Origin: Pyrodictium delaneyi
GTDB lineage: Archaea > Thermoproteota > Thermoprotei_A > Sulfolobales > Pyrodictiaceae
DNA length: 32,000 bases
Direction: 5' to 3'
NCBI RefSeq assembly: GCF_001412615.1
Contig: NZ_CP013011.1
Location: 660,001-692,000, forward strand
The notes beneath the pieces were generated by a model. It saw only the letters and a list, made by a program, of their open reading frames with translations, did not search any database and was not told where the DNA came from. This document shows, one piece after another, positions 23,657 through 31,344 of the stretch; the stretch's first letter is position 1, and every line of letters begins with the position of its first letter. The position numbers and the translations under genes were made by a program.

Positions 23657-23734
23657 GGGCCCGTCGTCTAGCCTGGTTAGGACGCCGCCCTCACACGGCG
23701 GAGGTCCGGGGTTCAAATCCCCGCGGGCCCACCA
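23657..23734 (+). tRNA. tRNA-Val (anticodon CAC), with genomically encoded CCA
   Basis: Hand-folded cloverleaf. Acceptor GGGCCCG/CGGGCCC, D-stem GTCT/GGAC, anticodon stem CCGCC/GGCGG with loop CTCACAC, T-arm CGGGG-TTCAAAT-CCCCG, discriminator A at 23731, then CCA. Confidence 0.92.
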
Positions 23735-23777
23735 TTCTCCGCACTCCTTCGCGCTTACAGGAACAGGTTTGGGGAAC

Positions 23778-24236
23778 ATGGCTGCCGAGACTCAAAAAGT
23801 GATACGGCGCCCCACAGAAGCACCGGGGGCGCCGGAAGTGAGCGCCAGCATAGCGAGAGCAGTCGACAGTATCCTGGATATTCTACGCGATATCCCCCCA
23901 GCCTACAGGCTACAAGTACTCCGCATAGCCGAGAGCAAGATACGACCAAGCATTATAGAGAGCGGCGAGCTTGTAAGGAAGGTATCAAAAGGCGGGAGGG
24001 CCAGTTACTTTGTAACACTCCCGAACAACTATACTGAGCTTGTTGGGGAATACGCTATACAAATCAAAGGTAAAAAACTGATCTATATCCCTGTAGAGAA
24101 GGGGGTGGCACGTCTCCGTACATACGGCGGCCGGCTCCGCCTAACCATACCCAAGGGCGCATTTGAGGCTATTGGTTCTCCTAGCTACGTCCGTGTCCGG
24201 GTTGAGGATGGCAGGATCGTGGTGGAGCCCGCCTAA
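23778..24236 (+). CDS. Tandem AbrB/SpoVT-like (swapped-hairpin) DNA-binding protein
   Basis: Two AbrB-like units: KGGRASYFVTLPNNYTELVGEYAIQIKGKKLIYIP and GGRLRLTIPKGAFEAIGSPSYVRVRVEDGRIVVEP. The ATG at 23778 is only 44 nt after the tRNA. Confidence 0.55.
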   Translation: MAAETQKVIRRPTEAPGAPEVSASIARAVDSILDILRDIPPAYRLQVLRIAESKIRPSIIESGELVRKVSKGGRASYFVTLPNNYTELVGEYAIQIKGKKLIYIPVEKGVARLRTYGGRLRLTIPKGAFEAIGSPSYVRVRVEDGRIVVEPA

Positions 24237-24254
24237 AGGGCGGGGTGTGTTTTT
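24228..24254 (+). terminator. Hairpin plus T-run overlapping the stop codon of the AbrB-like gene
   Basis: CCCGCC (24228-24233) / GGCGGG (24239-24244) with loop TAAAG, followed by TTTTT at 24250-24254. Confidence 0.3.
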
Positions 24255-24552
24255 GCAACGTAGGAGCTTGTATGCTATCGTGTTTTCTGTGATGCTTCTC
24301 GGCCTCCTCTCGTTGTCTTATGTTCTTTATGCATGGCTTGGGTTTGACTGGCTCTACCTGCTTGTGTTCGGTATCGTGCTGGCTGGAGTCGTGTTGTTGC
24401 GGCCTTTCCAGCTCCTCTTCATGATGCCCGAGCTGGCCGAGAGACTAGCCCCAAGGAGCCCGAGACGAAAAAGAAGCCCATTGAGTACATGGAGCGTCGC
24501 GTCAAGAAGTTCCCCAAGTGCTTCCACGGGCGAGAGCACGGCTTCAAGGTGA
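24247..24552 (+). CDS. Small two-TM membrane protein; C-terminal part probably read in the wrong frame (see findings)
   Basis: Hydrophobic core LLGLLSLSYVLYAWLGFDWLYLLVFGIVLAGVVLL. The start is ambiguous (GTG 24247 to ATG 24292). The tail is RSP-rich, as expected from out-of-frame reading. Confidence 0.35.
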   Translation: MFLQRRSLYAIVFSVMLLGLLSLSYVLYAWLGFDWLYLLVFGIVLAGVVLLRPFQLLFMMPELAERLAPRSPRRKRSPLSTWSVASRSSPSASTGESTASR

Positions 24553-24559
24553 AGAGGGA

Positions 24560-25417
24560 GTGAACGTCAGCCTGCCCGTTGTTATCGCAGCGTTCTTCGA
24601 GTTTTTCCGCCGGATACCGGCGGAAGACTTCGCAAAGGCTAGGAACGAGATAGAGGAGCTCAGAAAGAGCCACGAGAGGCTGGTCGGCAAGACTGCCATG
24701 CTGCTGGCAGCTGAGAGTCTTCTCGACCACATGCTGAGAGAGACTGAGAGAAACATGGGCACCCTCGGCGAGGCACTAGCCGATGTTCTAGTCCACCTCA
24801 AGACCCGGTTATCGAGGATGCCAGACAGCCAGCTCAGAAGAGAAGTAGTACGAGTCACGAACCAGATACTGGGGAATATGGCTGCCTCGCTCCGGGAAGA
24901 GCTAGGCTACATAAAGGACGACTTAGCGAGCGCGGGTCAGAGTAGTGCTGCCGCACAGCTTGTTGAGGAGGTTCTCGCACAGCCCCATGTGCTTGAGGAG
25001 CTACATAAGAGGCTAGGTAGTCTGGAGCGGTGTAGAAGCAGCCTAGACCTCCTAGAGGCTGCGCTCCTAGAGGCACAGAGAAGGGAGGAAAAACTCTGGG
25101 AAGAATACAAACACAACATGCCCCTGGGGGCTTTTCTGCTGGTGCTCAGCATAGCCGCAGCGGGTATATTGAAGCACGGAGTCCCGCTGGAGCAGCACGC
25201 CCTACTAGCAGCCTATATAGCGTCCCTAGCCCTCTACACGTTCTCAAACTACCTCCTCTACCGTGGTGCCTCTAGGCTCCTAGACTATGCTGTCCTGAGG
25301 CGCTGGTTTAGCGAATTTAGGCAGCTAGTGGCTAGATTCAGAAAACAGGGCCCCGGGGTAGATTGCGACAAGCTATTCGGGGAGGCGGTAGGTTCTTGGA
25401 AGAAGCTGGTGGGCTGA
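24560..25417 (+). CDS. Coiled-coil protein with two C-terminal TM helices (hypothetical)
   Basis: Long heptad-like helical region, then LGAFLLVLSIAAAGIL and LLAAYIASLALYTFSNYLL. The preferred start is GTG 24560, after GAAGAGGGAG and overlapping an upstream TGA. The longest ORF starts at 24518. Confidence 0.5.
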   Translation: MNVSLPVVIAAFFEFFRRIPAEDFAKARNEIEELRKSHERLVGKTAMLLAAESLLDHMLRETERNMGTLGEALADVLVHLKTRLSRMPDSQLRREVVRVTNQILGNMAASLREELGYIKDDLASAGQSSAAAQLVEEVLAQPHVLEELHKRLGSLERCRSSLDLLEAALLEAQRREEKLWEEYKHNMPLGAFLLVLSIAAAGILKHGVPLEQHALLAAYIASLALYTFSNYLLYRGASRLLDYAVLRRWFSEFRQLVARFRKQGPGVDCDKLFGEAVGSWKKLVG

Positions 25418-25425
25418 AGAAGCTT

Positions 25426-25833
25426 ATGGTGCTAGCACTCCTAGGTAACGGCCCTGTGCAGGGCCGGACTCGCATGATGAAGCTATTGTTCCTAGCCCAG
25501 GATAGGGCTAGGAAGCGAGGCATAGAGCTCGACGGGGGCTTTGAGTTCATACCCTACCGCTTTGGGCCGTGGAGCTACGAGGTGCTAATGGTCCTAGAGG
25601 AGCTGCAGCAGGAGGGACTCGTGGTGGAGGAGGTGGAGGAGACCAGCTACGGGCCCCGGTTCAGGTACTTCCTCACCAGGAGGGGACGGGAAGAGGCTGA
25701 GAAGGCCCGCCAGAAGCTACCCCCAGAGATAGTCGAGGAGCTGGACCGCGTCTACCGCGAATGGGCCCAGCGGAGGCTCATCGAGCTGATAGCCTACATC
25801 TACAAGAAGTACCCCGACTATGCCCCCGCATAG
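25426..25833 (+). CDS. Panacea (DUF4065)-like domain protein with wHTH-like middle segment (tentative)
   Basis: MKLLFLAQ...FEFIPYRFGPWSYEVLMVLEEL resembles the DUF4065 core (KLLYxAq ... GPv...vy). The ATG at 25426 is 8 nt after the upstream stop. Confidence 0.4.
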   Translation: MVLALLGNGPVQGRTRMMKLLFLAQDRARKRGIELDGGFEFIPYRFGPWSYEVLMVLEELQQEGLVVEEVEETSYGPRFRYFLTRRGREEAEKARQKLPPEIVEELDRVYREWAQRRLIELIAYIYKKYPDYAPA

Positions 25834-25951
25834 CCTCCTTCCCCCTACAACAATCGAGAAGCCACGTCCTGTACATGCCGATTCTATGCTGGAGTTAGAC
25901 CAAGGCCAGAACCCGCCATGTAGGAGCAGCCCATAGTCTCCCGGGGCAAGC

Positions 25952-25975
25952 TATAAATCGGACAACCGGTTGTCC
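25952..25975 (+). promoter_or_regulatory. TATA box (TATAAAT, 25952-25958) immediately followed by a perfect 16-bp palindromic operator candidate (GGACAACCGGTTGTCC, 25960-25975)
   Basis: Read directly from the sequence. The GTG at 25981 lies about 25 nt downstream of the TATA centre, which fits a leaderless first gene. Confidence 0.5.
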
Positions 25976-25980
25976 AATTT

Positions 25981-26349
25981 GTGGGCCGCCCGGGGGCGCT
26001 TGTGGCCCCGCGGGGGCCCGGAGGCCCGGGTATGACCAGTACGGCGGCTCTTCGGGTTCGGGTAGGTAGGGACACGGTATCTCCAGATATTGTTTTTCCT
26101 GTGGAGCAGCTCGAGGCTCGTATCCGTTTCCTGAAGAACCGTGTCGCGTGGCTTGCCTACCGCAGTCGCGACAGCCGCGTGGTTCGTGCTGCCTCCGATC
26201 TTCTTGTCCGCTTGACGGACTTACTCGAAGACCTCGAGGAGGGTGTCCCTGCTTCTGAGCTCCTCCACAGTCTACGTCTCCTAGAGGAGGATGTTCGCTC
26301 CCTTCTCCGTAGCCCGGAGTCCTATGCTTCTTCCGATGGTTCTCCGTAG
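25981..26349 (+). CDS. Hypothetical acidic helical protein, first gene of the operon
   Basis: ORF in the operon frame pattern. Alternative ATG at 26032. No motif recognised. Confidence 0.45.
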   Translation: MGRPGALVAPRGPGGPGMTSTAALRVRVGRDTVSPDIVFPVEQLEARIRFLKNRVAWLAYRSRDSRVVRAASDLLVRLTDLLEDLEEGVPASELLHSLRLLEEDVRSLLRSPESYASSDGSP

Positions 26350-26355
26350 GGGTGG

Positions 26356-26841
26356 TTGGGTGTGGCTCGGGCCGGTGTTGTGTCTCTGAGTGTGGAGGCT
26401 GGGGTTGCTGCCCGGGTTCTGGCGGAGAATGGTGTGCAGTTCTTCACGGTGAGGCGGCTTGCCCGTATGCTCGGCGTGTCGCCGTGGAAGGCTAGCGCCA
26501 TTGTCCGGGAGATGAGGAGGCTGGGGCTGGCGAGGGAGTGGAACAGTAACAGCTACGTGCTGACAATCCCGGTTCCCCGGCGCAGCAGCGGCCAGGAGCC
26601 CAGCCGGGGCGATGAGCCGGCGGAGCCTCCCAGGCGCGGAGAGGGGCCGCTCACTGGGCTACGGGTGGTCACCTTCAAGCTCGATGCGCGCCTTCTGGCA
26701 GCCCTCGACAACGCCGTGGCCATGCTGGGCTACGACTCCCGCAGCGAGATCATCCGCGAAGCGCTCCGCGAGTTCCTCGAGCGCCGCGGCCTCCTCCCAC
26801 CGCGGGAGGAGTCTAGCGGCGACAGCAGAGCGGAGGCCTAG
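26356..26841 (+). CDS. DNA-binding protein: N-terminal wHTH plus C-terminal ribbon-helix-helix
   Basis: FTVRRLARMLGVSPWKASAIVREMRRLGL (wHTH). VVTFKLDARLLAALDNAVAMLGYDSRSEIIREALREFLER (RHH). Confidence 0.6.
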   Translation: MGVARAGVVSLSVEAGVAARVLAENGVQFFTVRRLARMLGVSPWKASAIVREMRRLGLAREWNSNSYVLTIPVPRRSSGQEPSRGDEPAEPPRRGEGPLTGLRVVTFKLDARLLAALDNAVAMLGYDSRSEIIREALREFLERRGLLPPREESSGDSRAEA

Positions 26842-26845
26842 CGCC

Positions 26846-27109
26846 GTGGCGCTGTTCAGGGTCGGCCCCTGTGTCCTCCAGGTCATACTGACCGACTGCT
26901 ATGGGCACCCAGTACCCGACCTTGAGCAGGTGATGGAGGACTTGGTTCTGCTTGGTGCAGTGCCTCGGGGGCTCCGGGACTGCGACGCCATGGCCATCCT
27001 CACGCGGCGGGCGGTGGAGGAGGCTACGGGCTGCGAGGCCCGCGTCGAGCCCTTCCCGTGGGCTATGGGGCCGGAGATGCACAGGATCATGGCTCTGCGG
27101 CTGGGGTGA
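26846..27109 (+). CDS. Hypothetical protein
   Basis: GTG at 26846 is in frame with the 26612..27109 ORF, 4 nt after the upstream stop and preceded by GGAGG. The longer 26612 start would overlap the RHH gene. Confidence 0.4.
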   Translation: MALFRVGPCVLQVILTDCYGHPVPDLEQVMEDLVLLGAVPRGLRDCDAMAILTRRAVEEATGCEARVEPFPWAMGPEMHRIMALRLG

Positions 27110-27115
27110 CCGGGT

Positions 27116-27313
27116 GTGAGGGTGACGGTTGACCCCAAGAAGATCGCGCAAGTGCTGAGAAGGCTCGGCGTCGTATACGTCAGCCCCCATGACCTAACAG
27201 CAATGCTAGGAATCCCGTCGAGAAGCGCCGGCAGACTGTTGAAGGCCATGGAGAAGCAGGGGCTGGCTATACGCTACTCCAAGAACTTCTACAAGATACT
27301 AGCGAGGGGGTGA
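27116..27313 (+). CDS. Small wHTH protein
   Basis: 65 aa. VSPHDLTAMLGIPSRSAGRLLKAMEKQGLAIRY. GGGGTGA motif upstream. Confidence 0.5.
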   Translation: MRVTVDPKKIAQVLRRLGVVYVSPHDLTAMLGIPSRSAGRLLKAMEKQGLAIRYSKNFYKILARG

Positions 27314-27317
27314 CATA

Positions 27318-27971
27318 GTGGCTACGACCGTGAGGCGCGGCTACAGGTACGTGGTCCGGAAGGAGAACGGGACATGGCCCCCGAGGCATCATAACGGCTT
27401 GGACCCGGGGCTGGTGGGCCCCAGGGCCTTCGAGCACCCGGCTGTAAAGGAGTGGTGGATGTGGCTCCTCCGGGAGTACAGGCCCCGGGCTAGCGTGGCG
27501 CTTGTTACGCCCTGCTCTAGCGTGAAGCCCTACACGAGGAGCCCCACGTCGCGGAAGATACGGGGGCTGCTCCGCCGCCTCGGGCTCTGGAGCGCGGGGG
27601 AGAACCGGCCCAGGGGCATCGAGTGGCTCTACCTCAGCGACCTGCTCCTCCTGGTGCCGTACGAGCGGGCCGAGGAGTACCCAGCCTGCTGCTACGAGCT
27701 CCACCCCGACGAGGTCCTCCAGCGCCCCCTCCTACGCAGCATGGTATCCGGGATGCTAGCAGAGGCCATAGAGAGGCTCATGGACCGGGGCCTCGAGCGC
27801 GCCGTGGTCTTCCTCCCGAGGAAGCACCTAAGGCTCTGGAACGAGGCCAAGAAGCGGGCGGCAAGGTGGCCAAGCGAGACAGTAACCAGGTACACGATAT
27901 TCGGCTTCGACGGGCTCCCCGACGCGCTCAACGCTCTCCGCAGGGTGCCGGAGCTACAGGAGCTCCTGTAG
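27318..27971 (+). CDS. DUF5591 / ArcS C1-domain-like protein (putative 7-deazaguanine-modifying enzyme)
   Basis: VALVTPCSSVKPYTRSPTS fits the ArcS-type PC-x3-KPY-x2-S motif, but the final His of the recalled motif is Ser here. GGGGGTGA lies upstream of the GTG start. Confidence 0.5.
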   Translation: MATTVRRGYRYVVRKENGTWPPRHHNGLDPGLVGPRAFEHPAVKEWWMWLLREYRPRASVALVTPCSSVKPYTRSPTSRKIRGLLRRLGLWSAGENRPRGIEWLYLSDLLLLVPYERAEEYPACCYELHPDEVLQRPLLRSMVSGMLAEAIERLMDRGLERAVVFLPRKHLRLWNEAKKRAARWPSETVTRYTIFGFDGLPDALNALRRVPELQELL

Positions 27972-27985
27972 CGGGGTGATGGAGG

Positions 27986-28261
27986 GTGGCGGGCCACGGG
28001 GCGGTGCTAGCGGAGAAGCTCGTAGCCAGCATGGCTGGGCTGCCGGCGCCCATGGTGCTGGGCAGGCTGGTGCTAGTCCTCAGCGACGCGCTCGACGAGC
28101 TGCCCCCAGGGAAGGCCGTGGAGCTGGTAGCATGGAGCATCTGCGACGTGGAGTGCAGGAGCTGCGACTACTGCGACCCCGAGCACTGCATGGACGAGTG
28201 CACAGCGGCCAGGGCCGAGGAGCTGAGGAAGCTCCTGGAGAGGGCCGGGAGCCATGGCTGA
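27986..28261 (+). CDS. Small Cys-rich protein (6 Cys in 23 residues, includes CX3CX2C)
   Basis: WSICDVECRSCDYCDPEHCMDEC. Its 3' end overlaps the next start by 8 nt (ATGGCTGA). Confidence 0.45.
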   Translation: MAGHGAVLAEKLVASMAGLPAPMVLGRLVLVLSDALDELPPGKAVELVAWSICDVECRSCDYCDPEHCMDECTAARAEELRKLLERAGSHG

Positions 28262-28565
28262 GGCTCTAGAGCGGCTCGCGGAGGCGCTGGACCGGCATAT
28301 GCCTGTACTCCGCCACACCGTGGGCTCCCGCATAGCCGGCGACGGCTGCGAGGCGCGCGCCGTGTACGTGGCAGCGGGGCTGGTGGTGCGCGCCGAGTGC
28401 CGTTTCTTCAAGACGTGGAGGTGCCGGGTAACCGCGAGCGATGGTACACGCTGCGAGGGCGGCGCGTGCCGCGGCGAACACGCCATAGTGCTAGCCAAGG
28501 CGCTCACCGAGGCCGGTGTGCCCAACGCCTTCGGAGAGCCGGAGTGGGAGGCCGAGGAGCCATGA
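28254..28565 (+). CDS. Small Cys-containing protein (hypothetical metal-binding)
   Basis: Five Cys: GCEARAV...ECRFFKTWRCRVTASDGTRCEGGACRGEH. ATGA start/stop overlap with the next gene. Confidence 0.45.
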   Translation: MAEALERLAEALDRHMPVLRHTVGSRIAGDGCEARAVYVAAGLVVRAECRFFKTWRCRVTASDGTRCEGGACRGEHAIVLAKALTEAGVPNAFGEPEWEAEEP

Positions 28566-29503
28566 CCAGCCTTAGAGCCATAGCCGCCAGCCTAGGCGTG
28601 CCCTACGTTACCGCGTACCGTAGCCTCTGGCGCCTACTGGGCATTGGGCCCCGGCACATGAGGCGCATGGATAATCCCGACGTGGGAATTATCCACGGAG
28701 GCGCCGTGGAGACAGTAATCAAGGCAGCGCTGGCCCTGGCAAGGAGGAATCTAGCCTACTACACGCTGTCGCCAGTACCCCTCTGGCCGTGGCTGCTGGT
28801 CCCCGTCAAGTCCGTGGACGCGCTGGAGAAGCTACTGGAGAGCATGAGGAGGCTGGGGGCGAGGCCCAGCAGCGTTATCCTCGACGTGGGCATAATGGAC
28901 TGGTTCAACGGTAGAACCGCGGAGTACAGCGACAAGTTCTGGGACACGCTGTGGGAGGCCGTCGACAGGCTACGGGAGCTGGCCCGGGAGTACGGGTTCG
29001 AGTGGAGGATAGTGCTCCCCGACGTGCCGGCCACTGTGCCGGATAACGTCCCGCTGACCATGAGGCTGCAGGAGCGGCTCCTCAGCGAGCACCCCGAGCT
29101 ACCGTGGATACCGGTCGCGCAGGCTAGCCGGGAGACGCCCCACACAGAGCACCTAGCGTGGCTAGTGGAGACCGGCGTCGTGGAGAAGTATGGCTGCGTG
29201 GCGCTGGGCTCGCTGAAGCTCCTAGCCGGCAGGAAGAAGGCATTGTGGAGGGATGCTGTCTACAGGTCCCGGGGCCTCCTCGAGGAGCACGGGCTAGCCA
29301 ACGTCCGGCTCCACTTGTTCGGCGCGCCGCTCGACATCGTGGCCGCCGAGAAGCTGCCGCCGGGCTCATGGGACAGCAAGACGTGGACCTTCCCCAGGGT
29401 GCCCTACCTCTGGTCGGCCAAGGACGGGTCCATGCGCATAGTCTACTTCACGACGTTCCTCGAGCGCCTCGTAGAGCTGCTCGTGGAGCATGGTGGTGGC
29501 TAG
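28562..29503 (+). CDS. HTH-fused TGT-superfamily transglycosylase, DpdA-like (putative DNA-guanine transglycosylase)
   Basis: N-terminal HTH (LRAIAASLGVPYVTAYRSL). The series ILDVGIMDW, VLPDVP, VALGSLK, RLHLFGAP and SWDSKTW mirrors the ArcTGT/DpdA DSG..., HLFGAG... and ...DS motifs with similar spacing. No CxCxxC Zn site and no PUA or C-terminal tRNA-binding domains. The longest ORF from 28397 is unlikely. Confidence 0.55.
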   Translation: MTSLRAIAASLGVPYVTAYRSLWRLLGIGPRHMRRMDNPDVGIIHGGAVETVIKAALALARRNLAYYTLSPVPLWPWLLVPVKSVDALEKLLESMRRLGARPSSVILDVGIMDWFNGRTAEYSDKFWDTLWEAVDRLRELAREYGFEWRIVLPDVPATVPDNVPLTMRLQERLLSEHPELPWIPVAQASRETPHTEHLAWLVETGVVEKYGCVALGSLKLLAGRKKALWRDAVYRSRGLLEEHGLANVRLHLFGAPLDIVAAEKLPPGSWDSKTWTFPRVPYLWSAKDGSMRIVYFTTFLERLVELLVEHGGG

Positions 29504-29505
29504 CC

Positions 29506-29745
29506 GTGGCCAAGGTGATTCTACGGCCGGGGCTCTACAGGGAGGTGATTGCGGGGATGGTGTGGATGCTGCTCCGGCTGGAGGGCTGTATGGGGCCCAG
29601 GGAGGTTGCTGAGAGGCTCCGCCAGCTCGGCCTCGACGCTAGCCGCGGCAAGATCAACGACGCGCTCGTGGAGTACACGGGGAGGCTCTTCCGTAGGATG
29701 AAGATGGACGGGCACGTCGTATACTGCGCGGAGGAGAGGGTGTGA
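29506..29745 (+). CDS. Small wHTH-like protein (hypothetical)
   Basis: GTG at 29506 is 2 nt after the upstream stop, in frame with the 29158..29745 ORF. PREVAERLRQLGLDASRGKINDALVEY. Confidence 0.4.
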   Translation: MAKVILRPGLYREVIAGMVWMLLRLEGCMGPREVAERLRQLGLDASRGKINDALVEYTGRLFRRMKMDGHVVYCAEERV

Positions 29746-29751
29746 GGGGCC

Positions 29752-30117
29752 GTGGCTGTGAGTGTTGAGCGTGTCGGTGGCGGGCTGCGGGTCTGCGTGG
29801 ACCGGGACATGGAGTGCGAGCGTGTGAGGGCCGAGCTGCGCGCCGTAGTGGAGAGGCTCGCCGGGGAGCTCGGAGCCGAGTACAGCAGGGCCGCGCGGCA
29901 GCGCTTCCGGCGCCTAAGAAACCTCCTGGAGCTCGACCTCTTCCACGCCATGTGCGCCATGGAGGCGTCCGCTGGCTGCCTCACGGTAGACCGGTGGGTG
30001 CGGAGAGCGAGGATGCTCCTCCGGTTCGAGCAGGGCCCCGCATGGGGGTGTACCGGGGTTCTACTGCGAGGAGGGGCATGGAGATGGGATTGCAGAGCAG
30101 TAGAGGCTGATGACTAG
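29752..30117 (+). CDS. Hypothetical protein
   Basis: GTG start 6 nt after the upstream stop. No motif recognised. Confidence 0.4.
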   Translation: MAVSVERVGGGLRVCVDRDMECERVRAELRAVVERLAGELGAEYSRAARQRFRRLRNLLELDLFHAMCAMEASAGCLTVDRWVRRARMLLRFEQGPAWGCTGVLLRGGAWRWDCRAVEADD

Positions 30118-30137
30118 CGGCCGGAGGTGAGCCTCCT

Positions 30138-30752
30138 TTGCCCGGCGAGCGGTGGGCTAGGGAGAGGATGGGGCTAGCACTCAACGCGTATAACGAGTTT
30201 ATGCTGGCCGTGGCCCGTTCCCTGAGGTTTGTGCGTGAGAAGCTGGGGCTGGAGGGGCTGCGCCCCCGCTTCGACGAGGGCAGCAGCGATAGGAGGGTCT
30301 TCCTCATCGAGGTAGAGCTCCCGGCCTCAGCGCCCCTGGTGATAGCGGTCTACTCCACCACGGAGGAGGCTCGGCCGCTCACCTGGAGCAGGGTGGAGGC
30401 GAAGCTCCGCCGGCTACGCCGCTACGCGGCCCAGCGGGCCCCGCCAGCCCGGGACACCTTCGTAGCCGTCGTGACGGCGTCGCCCCGGGCCCGGGCCACA
30501 GGCCCCGCCCAGAAGAGGGCCAGGAGGAGCAAGGTGGCCCTAGGCACGGTAAAGGACGCCCTAAAGGCGCTACGGGGCTACCTGGTCAAGAGGCTCCGGG
30601 GGCTAATCAAGAGCCTCAGGGAGAAGGAGGCCAAGGCCTACGGCGAGCTGGCAGAGCTGCTCCGCGTCCTCTACCTCCTAGCCTCCAGGCTAGGGCCAGT
30701 CGGCATACCCCTCCACGAAGTCGAGGCCATGATTCGCGCCCGCCGCGCCTAG
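30138..30752 (+). CDS. Hypothetical basic protein, last gene of the operon
   Basis: TTG start preceded by GGAGGTGA. Arg/Lys-rich helical C-terminal half. Confidence 0.45.
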   Translation: MPGERWARERMGLALNAYNEFMLAVARSLRFVREKLGLEGLRPRFDEGSSDRRVFLIEVELPASAPLVIAVYSTTEEARPLTWSRVEAKLRRLRRYAAQRAPPARDTFVAVVTASPRARATGPAQKRARRSKVALGTVKDALKALRGYLVKRLRGLIKSLREKEAKAYGELAELLRVLYLLASRLGPVGIPLHEVEAMIRARRA

Positions 30753-30783
30753 CCAGCCAAGGACCCCCTATGCGCATTTGGTT

Positions 30784-30803
30784 AAAAGGTAATACTACCT
30801 TTT
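30784..30803 (+). terminator. Perfect 8-bp hairpin ending in a T-run just after the operon
   Basis: AAAAGGTA (30784-30791), loop ATAC, TACCTTTT (30796-30803). About 30 nt after the stop codon at 30750-30752. Confidence 0.4.
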
Positions 30804-30849
30804 CCCTTAATCGCTAACCTCTCCTAATGGGTAATACGTGTAGAACAAG

Positions 30850-31270
30850 TTACCAGGCCCCAGGCTATAGCCTGTAGCCTGTCCCAGGGCAGACCGGTTC
30901 TCCTCGAGCTATCCCCGGTAAACTGGTCCTAGAACAAAGGCGGCCGGAACTGTCCTGGGGCAAGGCCTGGGCCGGAAGTATTCCATGTTGTCAACGGGTG
31001 TGAGCTCTCCCCGGGATCCCCTATGCCCGGTGGAGTAGCTTCGGCCGGGTGCAGACACCGCCGCTTCTATGGCTGGGGCCTATCGCCTGACAGCCATGAC
31101 ATGGCAAGGCTTATCGCCTAACCACCGGGTAAGCCCACAGAGTAAGATTAGCTGCCAGGCTGACGTATTCTCCTCGAGCTCGCAGCTGTTAGCCCGTCTG
31201 CAGAGGAGAGGCATGTGGAGTTGCACGGGGCCGGGGCCTCTTCGCCTGAGCTCTCCCTAAACACGTGGTG
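30850..31270. other. ORF-free, relatively GC-rich, repeat-containing segment; candidate structured ncRNA or decayed/att-type sequence
   Basis: Only one implausible 63-aa ORF. Duplicated 13-mer TTCTCCTCGAGCT (30898, 31168), 11-mer TGAGCTCTCCC (31001, 31247), palindromes CAGGCTATAGCCTG (30861) and GCCATGACATGGC (31093). Confidence 0.25.
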
Positions 31271-31287
31271 GGAGTCAATCCGGGCCT

Positions 31288-31344
31288 AGAATACTACAAA
31301 GTATTCTTTCCATAGTAGTATACATGTTATTTATACTACTGTGG
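31288..31344. repeat. Two adjacent AT-rich inverted repeats
   Basis: AGAATACT/AGTATTCT (31288-31295 / 31300-31307, loop ACAA). CCATAGTAGTATA / TATACTACTGTGG (31310-31322 / 31332-31344, one T-G mismatch). Confidence 0.6.

Follow-up and report, generated by a model that had tools for sequence, protein, structure and literature searches.

Layout of the locus

The DNA analysed here (the window) is a 32,000 nt stretch of the Pyrodictium delaneyi chromosome, in which four tightly packed, co-directional genes, designated g1 to g4, occupy positions 27318-29503. The first and the last of them, g1 and g4, are proposed to form a two-gene module for 7-deazaguanine modification of DNA that resides on an integrated conjugative-type mobile element; from sequence comparisons and a structure model we regard this assignment as fairly likely. 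All four genes lie on the plus strand. g1 (27318-27971) has a GTG start and encodes a protein of 217 aa, and g2 (27986-28261), likewise with a GTG start, begins 14 nt past the g1 stop and encodes 91 aa. g3 (28254-28565, 103 aa) overlaps the stop of g2 by ATGGCTGA, and g4 (28562-29503, 313 aa) overlaps the stop of g3 by ATGA. An initial annotation of this DNA had described the same packing with two overlapping junctions, and the open reading frames (ORFs) as well as both overlaps were found to be present. The products of g1 and g4 are 100% identical to Pyrde_0694 and Pyrde_0697, respectively.

g1, a predicted stand-alone archaeosine-synthase core

The g1 product was compared with family models, virus collections and solved structures. 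Its sole matches in NCBIfam were two 'archaeosine synthase subunit alpha' models (ArcS alpha, E 2e-4), and in PHROGs it matched phrog_34505 (E 8.8e-12). A tblastn search of phage and virus records with g1 returned Sulfolobus viruses only; the matching protein was STSV2_16, with 30% identity across 154 residues (E 4e-19), which has been named ArcS2 (PMC10516641). In a scan of IMG/VR no close relatives of g1 were detected. A profile of 25 members of the g1 family (A5) matched Archaeoglobus fulgidus AF0587 in the Protein Data Bank (PDB 2q07, E 2.4e-8), a protein that itself has the ArcS motif PC-x3-KPY-x2-S-x2-H.

The stretch PCSSVKPYTRS, to which the initial annotation had drawn attention, was located at g1 residues 65-75 and is part of the ArcS-type catalytic motif PCSSVKPYTRSPTS (residues 65-78, encoded on the plus strand). 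P65, C66, K70-P71-Y72 and S75 of this motif are present in g1 and invariant in the family. At the position of the final His, g1 has Ser, as do 91 of the 93 motif-bearing crenarchaeal stand-alone homologues, chromosomal copies included (the other two have Thr and Ala), and STSV2_16 retains the His. The 217 aa of g1 make up a single domain, with neither a PUA domain nor the N-terminal domain that resembles tRNA-guanine transglycosylase (TGT). On this evidence g1 is predicted to be a stand-alone archaeosine-synthase core of the DUF5591/ArcS2 type, and the earlier assignment of the protein as ArcS-like is borne out in silico.

A second DUF5591 copy is encoded on the P. delaneyi chromosome (P0039, 62% identity to g1), amid housekeeping genes in synteny with Hyperthermus butylicus. 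In a neighbour-joining tree, which carries no bootstrap support, the element-linked g1 copies formed one clade apart from the chromosomal paralogues and nested within the cellular crenarchaeal family. A single nested clade points to one capture event, which suggests that a host ArcS-core gene was taken up once by the element. The ratio of non-synonymous to synonymous substitution (dN/dS) was 0.28-0.43 for g1.

The chromosomal DUF5591 paralogues of Pyrodictium (L004, 6001-6690) and Hyperthermus (L005, 6001-6690) share their housekeeping neighbourhood, and in both a radical-SAM gene lies about 3 kb downstream. It was considered as a candidate for RaSEA and rejected, since it matches TIGR03916, the 'putative DNA modification/repair radical SAM protein' model, instead (E 7e-52 and 9e-57, below the cut-off).

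g4, a putative divergent member of the DpdA/TGT superfamily

Two domains can be distinguished in g4: a small helical, helix-turn-helix (HTH)-like domain at the N-terminus, presumed to bind DNA (aa 1-62, positions 28562-28747, plus strand), and a putative catalytic domain (aa 63-313, positions 28748-29503, plus strand). g4 has just 15 close homologues, all of them Pyrodictium-type, with identities of 53% or more. Thirteen of them were combined into a profile (A1), with which 1.84 billion representative proteins were searched; 51 matched at E <= 1e-3. When 45 sequences (44 of the A1 matches and g4) were scanned with Pfam, 14 matched the DpdA family PF23859 and 2 matched TGT. Two proteins that pass the PF23859 gathering score, P0125 with 45.1 bits and P0133 with 52.9 bits (cut-off 27), are reached by the A1 profile directly, at E 3.7e-11 and E 1.2e-8, respectively. 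In a pairwise tblastn comparison g4 was 36% identical to the P0125 locus across 121 residues.

The enlarged g4 family was then aligned with the viral DpdA family of STSV2 and SIRV. This family was assembled around STSV2_15, the 'queuine tRNA-ribosyltransferase' gene adjoining ArcS2 in STSV2, and comprises 176 homologues from Sulfolobales and rudiviruses. With hhalign the two families were aligned over 155 columns with a probability of 96.6% (E 5e-10); the shallow A1 profile gave the identical alignment with a probability of only 3%. Six motifs were paired in this alignment. LDVG of g4, with D108, corresponds to VDSGG (D44) of the STSV2 family, PDVPAT (D154) to LDIPAT (D78), PVAQ (Q187) to PVIH (H111), ALGS (G216, S217) to AFGG (G135, G136), LHLFG (H251, G254) to IHVLG (H167, G170) and SWDS (D271) to SVDT (D187). 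The catalytic Asp positions of g4 are thus aligned with those of a DpdA family. A direct BLASTP comparison of g4 with STSV2_15 was not significant.

In Salmonella DpdA, D95 serves as general acid/base, D130 and H181 read the base, G206-G207 form a loop and D256 is the nucleophile (PMC10164549). The g4 positions correspond to D95, D130, H181, G206-G207 and D256 by motif correspondence, not by superposition. Accordingly worded roles are proposed for g4: D108 may act as general acid/base, D154 and Q187 may recognize the base and D271 may be the nucleophile, and the G216-S217 loop and H251-x-x-G254 would belong to the same site. Q187 and D271 do not vary among the 51 members of the g4 family, of which at least 90% also keep D108, G110, D154, H251, F253, G254 and S269. 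All five segments in which the initial annotation had seen a TGT-like active site (ILDVGIMDW, VLPDVP, VALGSLK, RLHLFGAP and SWDSKTW) are present and coincide with invariant or nearly invariant family columns. The resemblance has the backing of profile statistics and goes beyond motif spotting. For the catalytic domain dN/dS was 0.26-0.32, and g4 and g1 are both under purifying selection. Together these comparisons identify g4 as a putative, very divergent protein of the DpdA/TGT superfamily.

Close relatives of g4 were not detected in IMG/VR, and tblastn found nothing significant among 50,697 phage and archaeal-virus records. The best hit in that collection, itself not significant (E 5, 26% identity), was to a hypothetical protein of Methanobacterium virus PhiF1 (MK994522.1, 11181-11732). 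It spans the whole g4 barrel (residues 106-301), and the PhiF1 protein may be another undetected DpdA-like protein.

Predicted structure of g4

A first AlphaFold model of g4, built from 13 close homologues, reached a predicted local distance difference test score (pLDDT) of 73.8 and showed only generic matches to the triosephosphate isomerase (TIM) barrel fold; it was replaced by a model from 51 sequences (pLDDT 90.8, predicted template-modelling score 0.90). In the latter a four-helix bundle (residues 1-62, with helices at 4-10, 15-26, 30-37 and 47-61) precedes eight beta-alpha units, and g4 is therefore predicted to be a (beta/alpha)8 TIM barrel of the TGT type. The earlier description of g4 as DpdA-like is hereby upheld in silico, as a TGT-superfamily TIM barrel, confidently modelled, in which the catalytic Asp positions are conserved. 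The N-terminal HTH that had been claimed for g4 is best described as HTH-like, from the predicted helical bundle and from weak Pfam HTH matches in the N-terminal region of the relatives P0113, P0115 and P0117 (P0113 to HTH_5, E 4.7e-4). The distant relatives of g4 are for the most part barrel-only proteins of about 250 aa, whose matches begin near query residue 62-66.

When the model was compared with the PDB using Foldseek, ranks 1 and 2 were taken by Cap10 (9ntn, E 4.5e-5), a TGT-family enzyme of type IV CBASS (cyclic-oligonucleotide-based antiphage signalling system), and rank 4 by DpdA (7ui4). Against the predicted viral structures of BFVD 13 matches were obtained at E <= 1e-3, among them phage proteins that bear the annotation queuine tRNA-ribosyltransferase; rank 17 (E 5e-3) was held by a protein from a Sulfolobales rudivirus.

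With Cap10 as the best structural match in the PDB, ahead of DpdA, g4 could be a TGT-fold enzyme that has been repurposed for a target other than nucleic acid. Cap10 itself is described as a remodelled enzyme of the tRNA-transglycosylase family (bioRxiv 10.1101/2025.04.06.647259), and in type IV CBASS 7-deazaguanine is conjugated to protein. We consider this very improbable for g4: the TM-scores to Cap10 are only about 0.42, the sequence-profile links lead to DpdA and not to Cap10, the HTH fusion points to DNA, and the neighbourhood contains no QueC-like Cap9, no CD-NTase and no effector. The UVDE and xylose-isomerase-like barrels among the Foldseek matches, together with the scores of g4 below all curated family thresholds, would also fit a TIM barrel with some other chemistry, for example that of a DNA glycosylase or an AP-endonuclease-like enzyme, in which case the likeness to DpdA would reflect a shared fold only and the DUF5591 neighbour would be unrelated. 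Such a coincidence is hard to reconcile with the profile matches to proteins that pass the Pfam DpdA threshold, with six catalytic and substrate motifs that are co-linear in the alignment, with the invariant Asp, Asp, Gln and Asp positions and with the strict linkage to an enzyme whose only known substrate is preQ0, and is given equally little credence.

g4 contains one Cys in total (C212) and ends 42 residues after D271, which leaves it without a zinc subdomain or a tRNA-binding domain. The initial annotation was right on both counts, in that neither the CxCxxC...H zinc site nor a domain after the barrel was found. No invariant Cys is seen in the alignment of the STSV2/SIRV DpdA family either, so the zinc site is not universal among viral DpdAs.

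These features also bear on the possibility that the pair acts on RNA, as an element-borne tRNA-guanine transglycosylase and archaeosine synthase that would supplement or alter the archaeosine of host tRNA. Both families descend from tRNA archaeosine enzymes, the nearest relatives of g1 are chromosomal and apparently housekeeping, and the NCBIfam models that g1 matches are those of ArcS alpha alone. g4, however, lacks the tRNA-binding elements of the archaeal TGT (ArcTGT), that is the C-terminal domains with PUA, as well as the zinc subdomain, and has an HTH-like domain instead; its significant profile matches are to DpdA-type and virus-encoded TGT-like proteins. Moreover, the host keeps a DUF5591 copy of its own, and the virus- or element-borne TGT paralogues tested to date act on DNA (PMC6884629, PMC10516641). 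An RNA target is accordingly judged quite unlikely, and DNA is retained as the preferred substrate of g1 and g4.

The conserved unit and its small neighbour genes

The gene neighbourhood was compared across eight loci, namely the window, P. abyssi (L002), a second P. delaneyi strain (L022), a metagenome-assembled genome of the Pyrodictiaceae (L014) and the metagenome or draft contigs L016, L018, L020 and L021. A g1 homologue was found upstream of the g4 homologue and on the same strand in all eight. The two are directly adjacent in five loci (gaps of 0-20 nt), and only small ORFs lie between them in the other three. g2 was present in three of the eight loci (the window, P. abyssi and the second P. 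delaneyi strain) and g3 in two (the window and P. abyssi). At the g3 position, between the g1 and g2 homologues, gene calling placed an unrelated ORF of 44 aa in the second P. delaneyi strain, and nothing is found there in L014, L016, L018, L020 and L021.

The Cys cluster of g2, C-x3-C-x2-C-x2-C-x4-C-x3-C, is not maintained; the homologue in the second P. delaneyi strain has lost two of the six Cys, which form the central CxxC. Neither g2 nor g3 matched a family or a solved structure in Pfam, NCBIfam, PHROGs, PADLOC or the PDB, and their dN/dS values were 0.48-0.77 (g2) and 0.46 (g3). The idea that they serve as core partners, or as a zinc module acting in trans, was rejected with regard to a core function, being at odds with their absence from most loci and with the lack of Cys conservation. 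By their distribution g2 and g3 are accessory, lineage-specific inserts. The initial annotation had counted both Cys-rich proteins as parts of the module; this is not sustained, as g3 is missing in six and g2 in five of the eight loci. Because g2 and g3 are absent from most loci, the conserved core is reduced to a two-gene module of g1 and g4.

The module is often preceded by a small winged-helix gene. In the window this gene, g0 (27116-27313, plus strand), encodes a MarR-like winged-helix protein of 65 aa (Pfam MarR_2, E 1.1e-4, under the curated cut-off), and its stop lies 4 nt before the start of g1. In L020, L021 and the second P. delaneyi strain the DUF5591 gene likewise has a g0 homologue immediately before it. 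The module is probably regulated by g0. Downstream, g5 (29506-29745, plus strand, 79 aa) starts 3 nt past the g4 stop and is a conserved neighbour. Its homologues (39-68% identity) lie downstream of the g4 homologue within 10 nt in P. abyssi and the second P. delaneyi strain, and at about 200 nt in L014 and L019. No family match was obtained for g5, and g5 and g7 are without recognisable domains.

Candidate partners were also looked for beside the distant g4 relatives. Next to P0119, ORFs of 103, 91 and 178 aa were considered as g3, g2 and g1 and were rejected, their translations having no Cys clusters and no likeness by eye. P0125, a DpdA-Pfam-positive protein of 560 aa, lies near a DUF6884 protein, a MvaI/BcnI-type restriction endonuclease and a PD-(D/E)xK protein (L003, 555-8000), a neighbourhood that looks like a restriction-modification context. 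The stretch 'ITGCSKKK' of the DUF6884 protein faintly recalls the PCSxxKP motif of ArcS; the similarity is not significant, and this adjoining protein was rejected as an analogue of DUF5591.

The carrier element

A tRNA-Val(CAC) gene (23657-23734, plus strand; found by ARAGORN, Rfam 63.9 bits) marks the left edge of the island. Upstream of it lie the housekeeping genes for CTP synthase, MoeA, Clp1 and ThiS, and downstream of it ORFans and regulators of the ribbon-helix-helix (RHH) and HTH (winged-helix) types. G+C content is 65-67% over 26000-30000 and 45-62% over 1-26000. DNA homology to the second P. delaneyi strain starts exactly at 23657. Between the two strains, compared over window positions 23657-27978 (left arm) and 27974-31310 (right part), proteins of the left arm from gm4 through g0 are 99-100% identical, whereas g1, g2, g4, g5 and g7 are 49-81% identical. 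This mosaic divergence points to a recombination breakpoint, or to the exchange of a cassette, just ahead of the module.

P. abyssi (L002, 12374-15880) and the second P. delaneyi strain (L022, 11857-15267) both encode a protein of 1136-1168 aa some 3 kb past the g4 homologue. The L022 protein matches a VirD4-like conjugal-transfer model (E 3.3e-16) as well as VirD4/TraG, VirB4 and HerA-like models, and the L002 protein gave only faint TraG/TrwB matches in Pfam. An equivalent position would fall just past the end of the window. These genes suggest that the Pyrodictium islands are integrated conjugative-type elements, in agreement with the earlier proposal of a mobile element, on which g1 and g4 proved to be strictly linked. 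An attachment (att) site search within the window revealed no direct repeats of the tRNA-Val 3' end, and to the right the element probably extends past 32000.

Residence on an integrated element, which exposes the whole chromosome to the enzymes, would also suit a role in defence. The same two enzymes would then be the modification half of a self/non-self system resembling restriction-modification, as in the bacterial dpd islands, with an effector attacking unmodified invaders. A mosaic such as that between the two P. delaneyi strains (71-81% in the module, 99-100% in the left arm) is typical of conflict genes, and the DpdA-Pfam relative P0125 stands near the endonuclease and the PD-(D/E)xK protein described above. 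Against this, no nuclease, no helicase, no ATPase of the DpdB type and no PADLOC family was detected among the module and its conserved neighbours, g5 and g7 are devoid of recognisable domains, and only g1 and g4 are conserved as partners across all eight loci. A defence system is therefore considered unlikely, and the following sections proceed from a modification module that would protect the element itself.

Further features of the island were noted. A 299-aa ORFan (24518-25417), without family match and 100% conserved in the second P. delaneyi strain, is coiled-coil-like in its N-terminal half and hydrophobic in its C-terminal region. In a 161-aa protein (26356-26841) an HTH-like region at the N-terminus is joined to a ribbon-helix-helix of the CopG type at the C-terminus (RHH_1, E 4.9e-11). 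The related elements L002, L006/7, L014 and L018 share the conserved RHH part; this is probably the main repressor or copy-control protein of the element. The segment 30770-31480 (about 700 bp) has no convincing ORF and no Rfam match. Most of it falls inside a high-scoring segment pair (30600-31310) that is about 76% identical to L022 9813-10528, and it may encode a non-coding RNA or serve the element as an origin or a transfer origin. At the edge of L022 an IS605 OrfB/Cas12f-like TnpB gene was observed.

Proposed mechanism and precursor supply

From the homology with DpdA (PMC10164549) a mechanism can be proposed for g4. The protein would bind DNA, its HTH-like domain possibly substituting for the missing Ins8/zinc DNA-contact region, and would flip the target guanine out of the duplex. 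The guanine would be displaced via a covalent intermediate between Asp271 and deoxyribose, with Asp108 as general acid/base, and the intermediate would be resolved by insertion of free preQ0 from the archaeosine pathway of the host. g1 would then attack the nitrile of the DNA-bound (or free) preQ0 through a thioimide at Cys66 and give an amidine-type base (dG+) or a related derivative. Expression of the operon would probably be regulated by g0. We infer DNA as substrate, preQ0 as donor base, the nature of the final product and an anti-restriction role from these relationships; the role would most likely consist in shielding the DNA of the element from host restriction during transfer. As the element is integrated, the whole chromosome could be modified as well.

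Precedents exist for both steps. In E. coli, DpdA2 of Vibrio phage nt-1 alone led to dPreQ0 in plasmid DNA, and DpdA2 together with ArcS2 led to dG+ (PMC10516641). The ArcS of Thermococcus kodakarensis accepts the preQ0 nucleoside and its 5'-monophosphate (PMC11298593), and since a bare nucleoside is taken, the ArcS core needs no tRNA architecture. The chromosomal DUF5591 paralogue in its housekeeping context implies preQ0 chemistry in the host, which would thereby supply the precursor.

Several observations weigh against this assignment. For g1, the score of the Pfam DUF5591 model (PF17884) is 25.2 bits and lies just below the cut-off of 26, although the precomputed database annotation gives PF17884 to P0016, a protein identical to g1; in addition, the final His of the ArcS motif is lacking. 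For g4, recognition by profile hidden Markov models was achieved in part: the family profile reaches PF23859-positive proteins as described, but g4 alone matches no Pfam family at E <= 1 (neither DpdA PF23859, TGT PF01702 nor DUF6610/DpdA4 PF20314) and nothing in NCBIfam or PADLOC. Its only direct family match is phrog_887, 'queuine tRNA-ribosyltransferase', at E 0.019. Neither DpdA nor TGT emerged when the PDB was searched by sequence profile, be it with A1, with A2 or with P0133, a DpdA-positive relative, and the null result for the g4 family counts here. The E-values of the structural comparison, between 1e-5 and 1e-3, were modest, and the relevant matches were interleaved with generic TIM barrels such as PdxJ, sugar epimerases and UVDE. 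g4 also lacks the structural zinc site, which is described as a conserved feature of DpdA and the TGTs. Around the more distant g4 relatives, which sit singly in uncharacterised elements, neither DUF5591 nor Que genes were seen. None of queC, queD, queE and folE was seen in the element. With the same gene pair, the DNA of STSV2 carries the modified nucleoside dCDG at 0.04% of G and, unexpectedly, not dG+ (PMC10516641), so that the product is not reliably predictable from these genes. Finally, a literature search found nothing that links Pyrodictium to deazaguanines in DNA and no chemical evidence of a modified base in its DNA.

Relation to known systems

The closest known system is that of STSV1 and STSV2 (Bicaudaviridae), crenarchaeal mobile elements in which DpdA (STSV2_15) and ArcS2 (STSV2_16) are adjacent and co-directional. 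STSV2 likewise combines a short TGT-like protein without zinc site with a stand-alone DUF5591 ArcS core, and neither element carries genes for preQ0 synthesis. The gene order is reversed, with ArcS2 first and the DpdA-like gene second in Pyrodictium, and g4 differs by its N-terminal HTH-like domain and by Gln at the base-recognition position where STSV2 has His. Furthermore, the carrier in the Pyrodictiaceae appears to be an integrated conjugative-type element and not a spindle-shaped virus, and for the virus dCDG has been measured in the DNA (PMC10516641).

The two-enzyme logic is shared with DpdA2 and ArcS2 of Vibrio phage nt-1, the only case in which experiment has proved that an ArcS core and a DpdA work together on DNA (PMC10516641). 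Unlike the Pyrodictium element, nt-1 is a bacterial myovirus that also encodes FolE, QueD, QueE and QueC; its DpdA belongs to another subfamily and its ArcS motif is degenerate. Bacterial DpdA (Salmonella Montevideo, 7ui4; PF23859) resembles g4 in being a TGT-superfamily TIM barrel with three catalytic or recognition Asp and a double-displacement mechanism (PMC10164549), but has a large Ins8 insertion with a zinc site, depends on the DpdB ATPase and belongs to a restriction-modification island of 11 genes. Of the Dpd island (dpdA-K), the genes for the ParB-like ATPase DpdB, for DpdC and for DpdD-K were not found around g1-g4, which match no PADLOC family and whose neighbours are small HTH, RHH and ORFan genes. 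A parallel in terms of divergence is DpdA4 (DUF6610, PF20314) of haloarchaeal viruses such as HVTV-1, a branch specific to archaeal viruses and divergent to the point that only HHpred recognised it (PMC10516641); HVTV-1, however, encodes its own preQ1 pathway and has no ArcS2, and, as stated above, PF20314 does not match g4.

With the cellular and split ArcS enzymes (A. fulgidus AF0587, 2q07; T. kodakarensis ArcS-RaSEA) g1 shares the C1 catalytic core and the invariant Cys, Lys-Pro-Tyr and Ser. It differs from them by the missing PUA and N-terminal TGT-like domains, by Ser in place of the final motif His and in that no RaSEA-type radical-SAM partner is present in the Pyrodictium element. To type IV CBASS with Cap9 and Cap10 the relation is confined to the structural similarity with Cap10, as neither a QueC-like nor a nucleotidyltransferase gene was found in the neighbourhood.

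Implications

The initial annotation had taken the gene combination to be undescribed. This was not the case, since a DpdA with a stand-alone ArcS (ArcS2) has been published for STSV1/2 and for Vibrio phage nt-1, as has the use of host preQ0 by such elements (PMC6884629, PMC10516641). The concept being already in print, the advance lies in breadth and enzyme diversity and not in principle. New are a putative DpdA clade that is invisible to all current models and is HTH-fused in its Pyrodictiaceae branch, the residence of the module on what appears to be an integrated conjugative-type element of hyperthermophiles, and an ArcS2 apparently captured from the host lineage.

The g4 family comprises 51 clusters at 50% identity, mostly barrel-only proteins on uncharacterised elements. 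A bolder joint reading, which we hold to be conceivable but doubtful, would have g4 found an unrecognised clade of HTH-guided DpdAs that is spreading through the 'dark matter' of archaeal mobile elements. In the Pyrodictiaceae it would, together with a host-derived ArcS core, place a charged archaeosine-type base or an undescribed derivative into the DNA, chromosome-wide, of organisms that grow near or above 100 °C, and the variable Cys-rich g2 and g3 could stand in for the missing zinc subdomain in trans or alter the specificity for targets.

7-Deazaguanine modification of DNA is documented in bacteria, phages and a few archaeal viruses. In a literature search no report was found of such modification on an archaeal conjugative or integrated element or in the Pyrodictiaceae. 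As the putative DpdA branch described here is missed by every current model, surveys that use Pfam, PADLOC and PHROGs would undercount archaeal systems. The module would also provide a second crenarchaeal pair of DpdA and ArcS2 with which the unexplained dCDG of STSV2 may be addressed. If active, it would extend 7-deazaguanine DNA modification to archaeal conjugative or integrated elements, and possibly to the chromosome of an organism living at about 100 °C.

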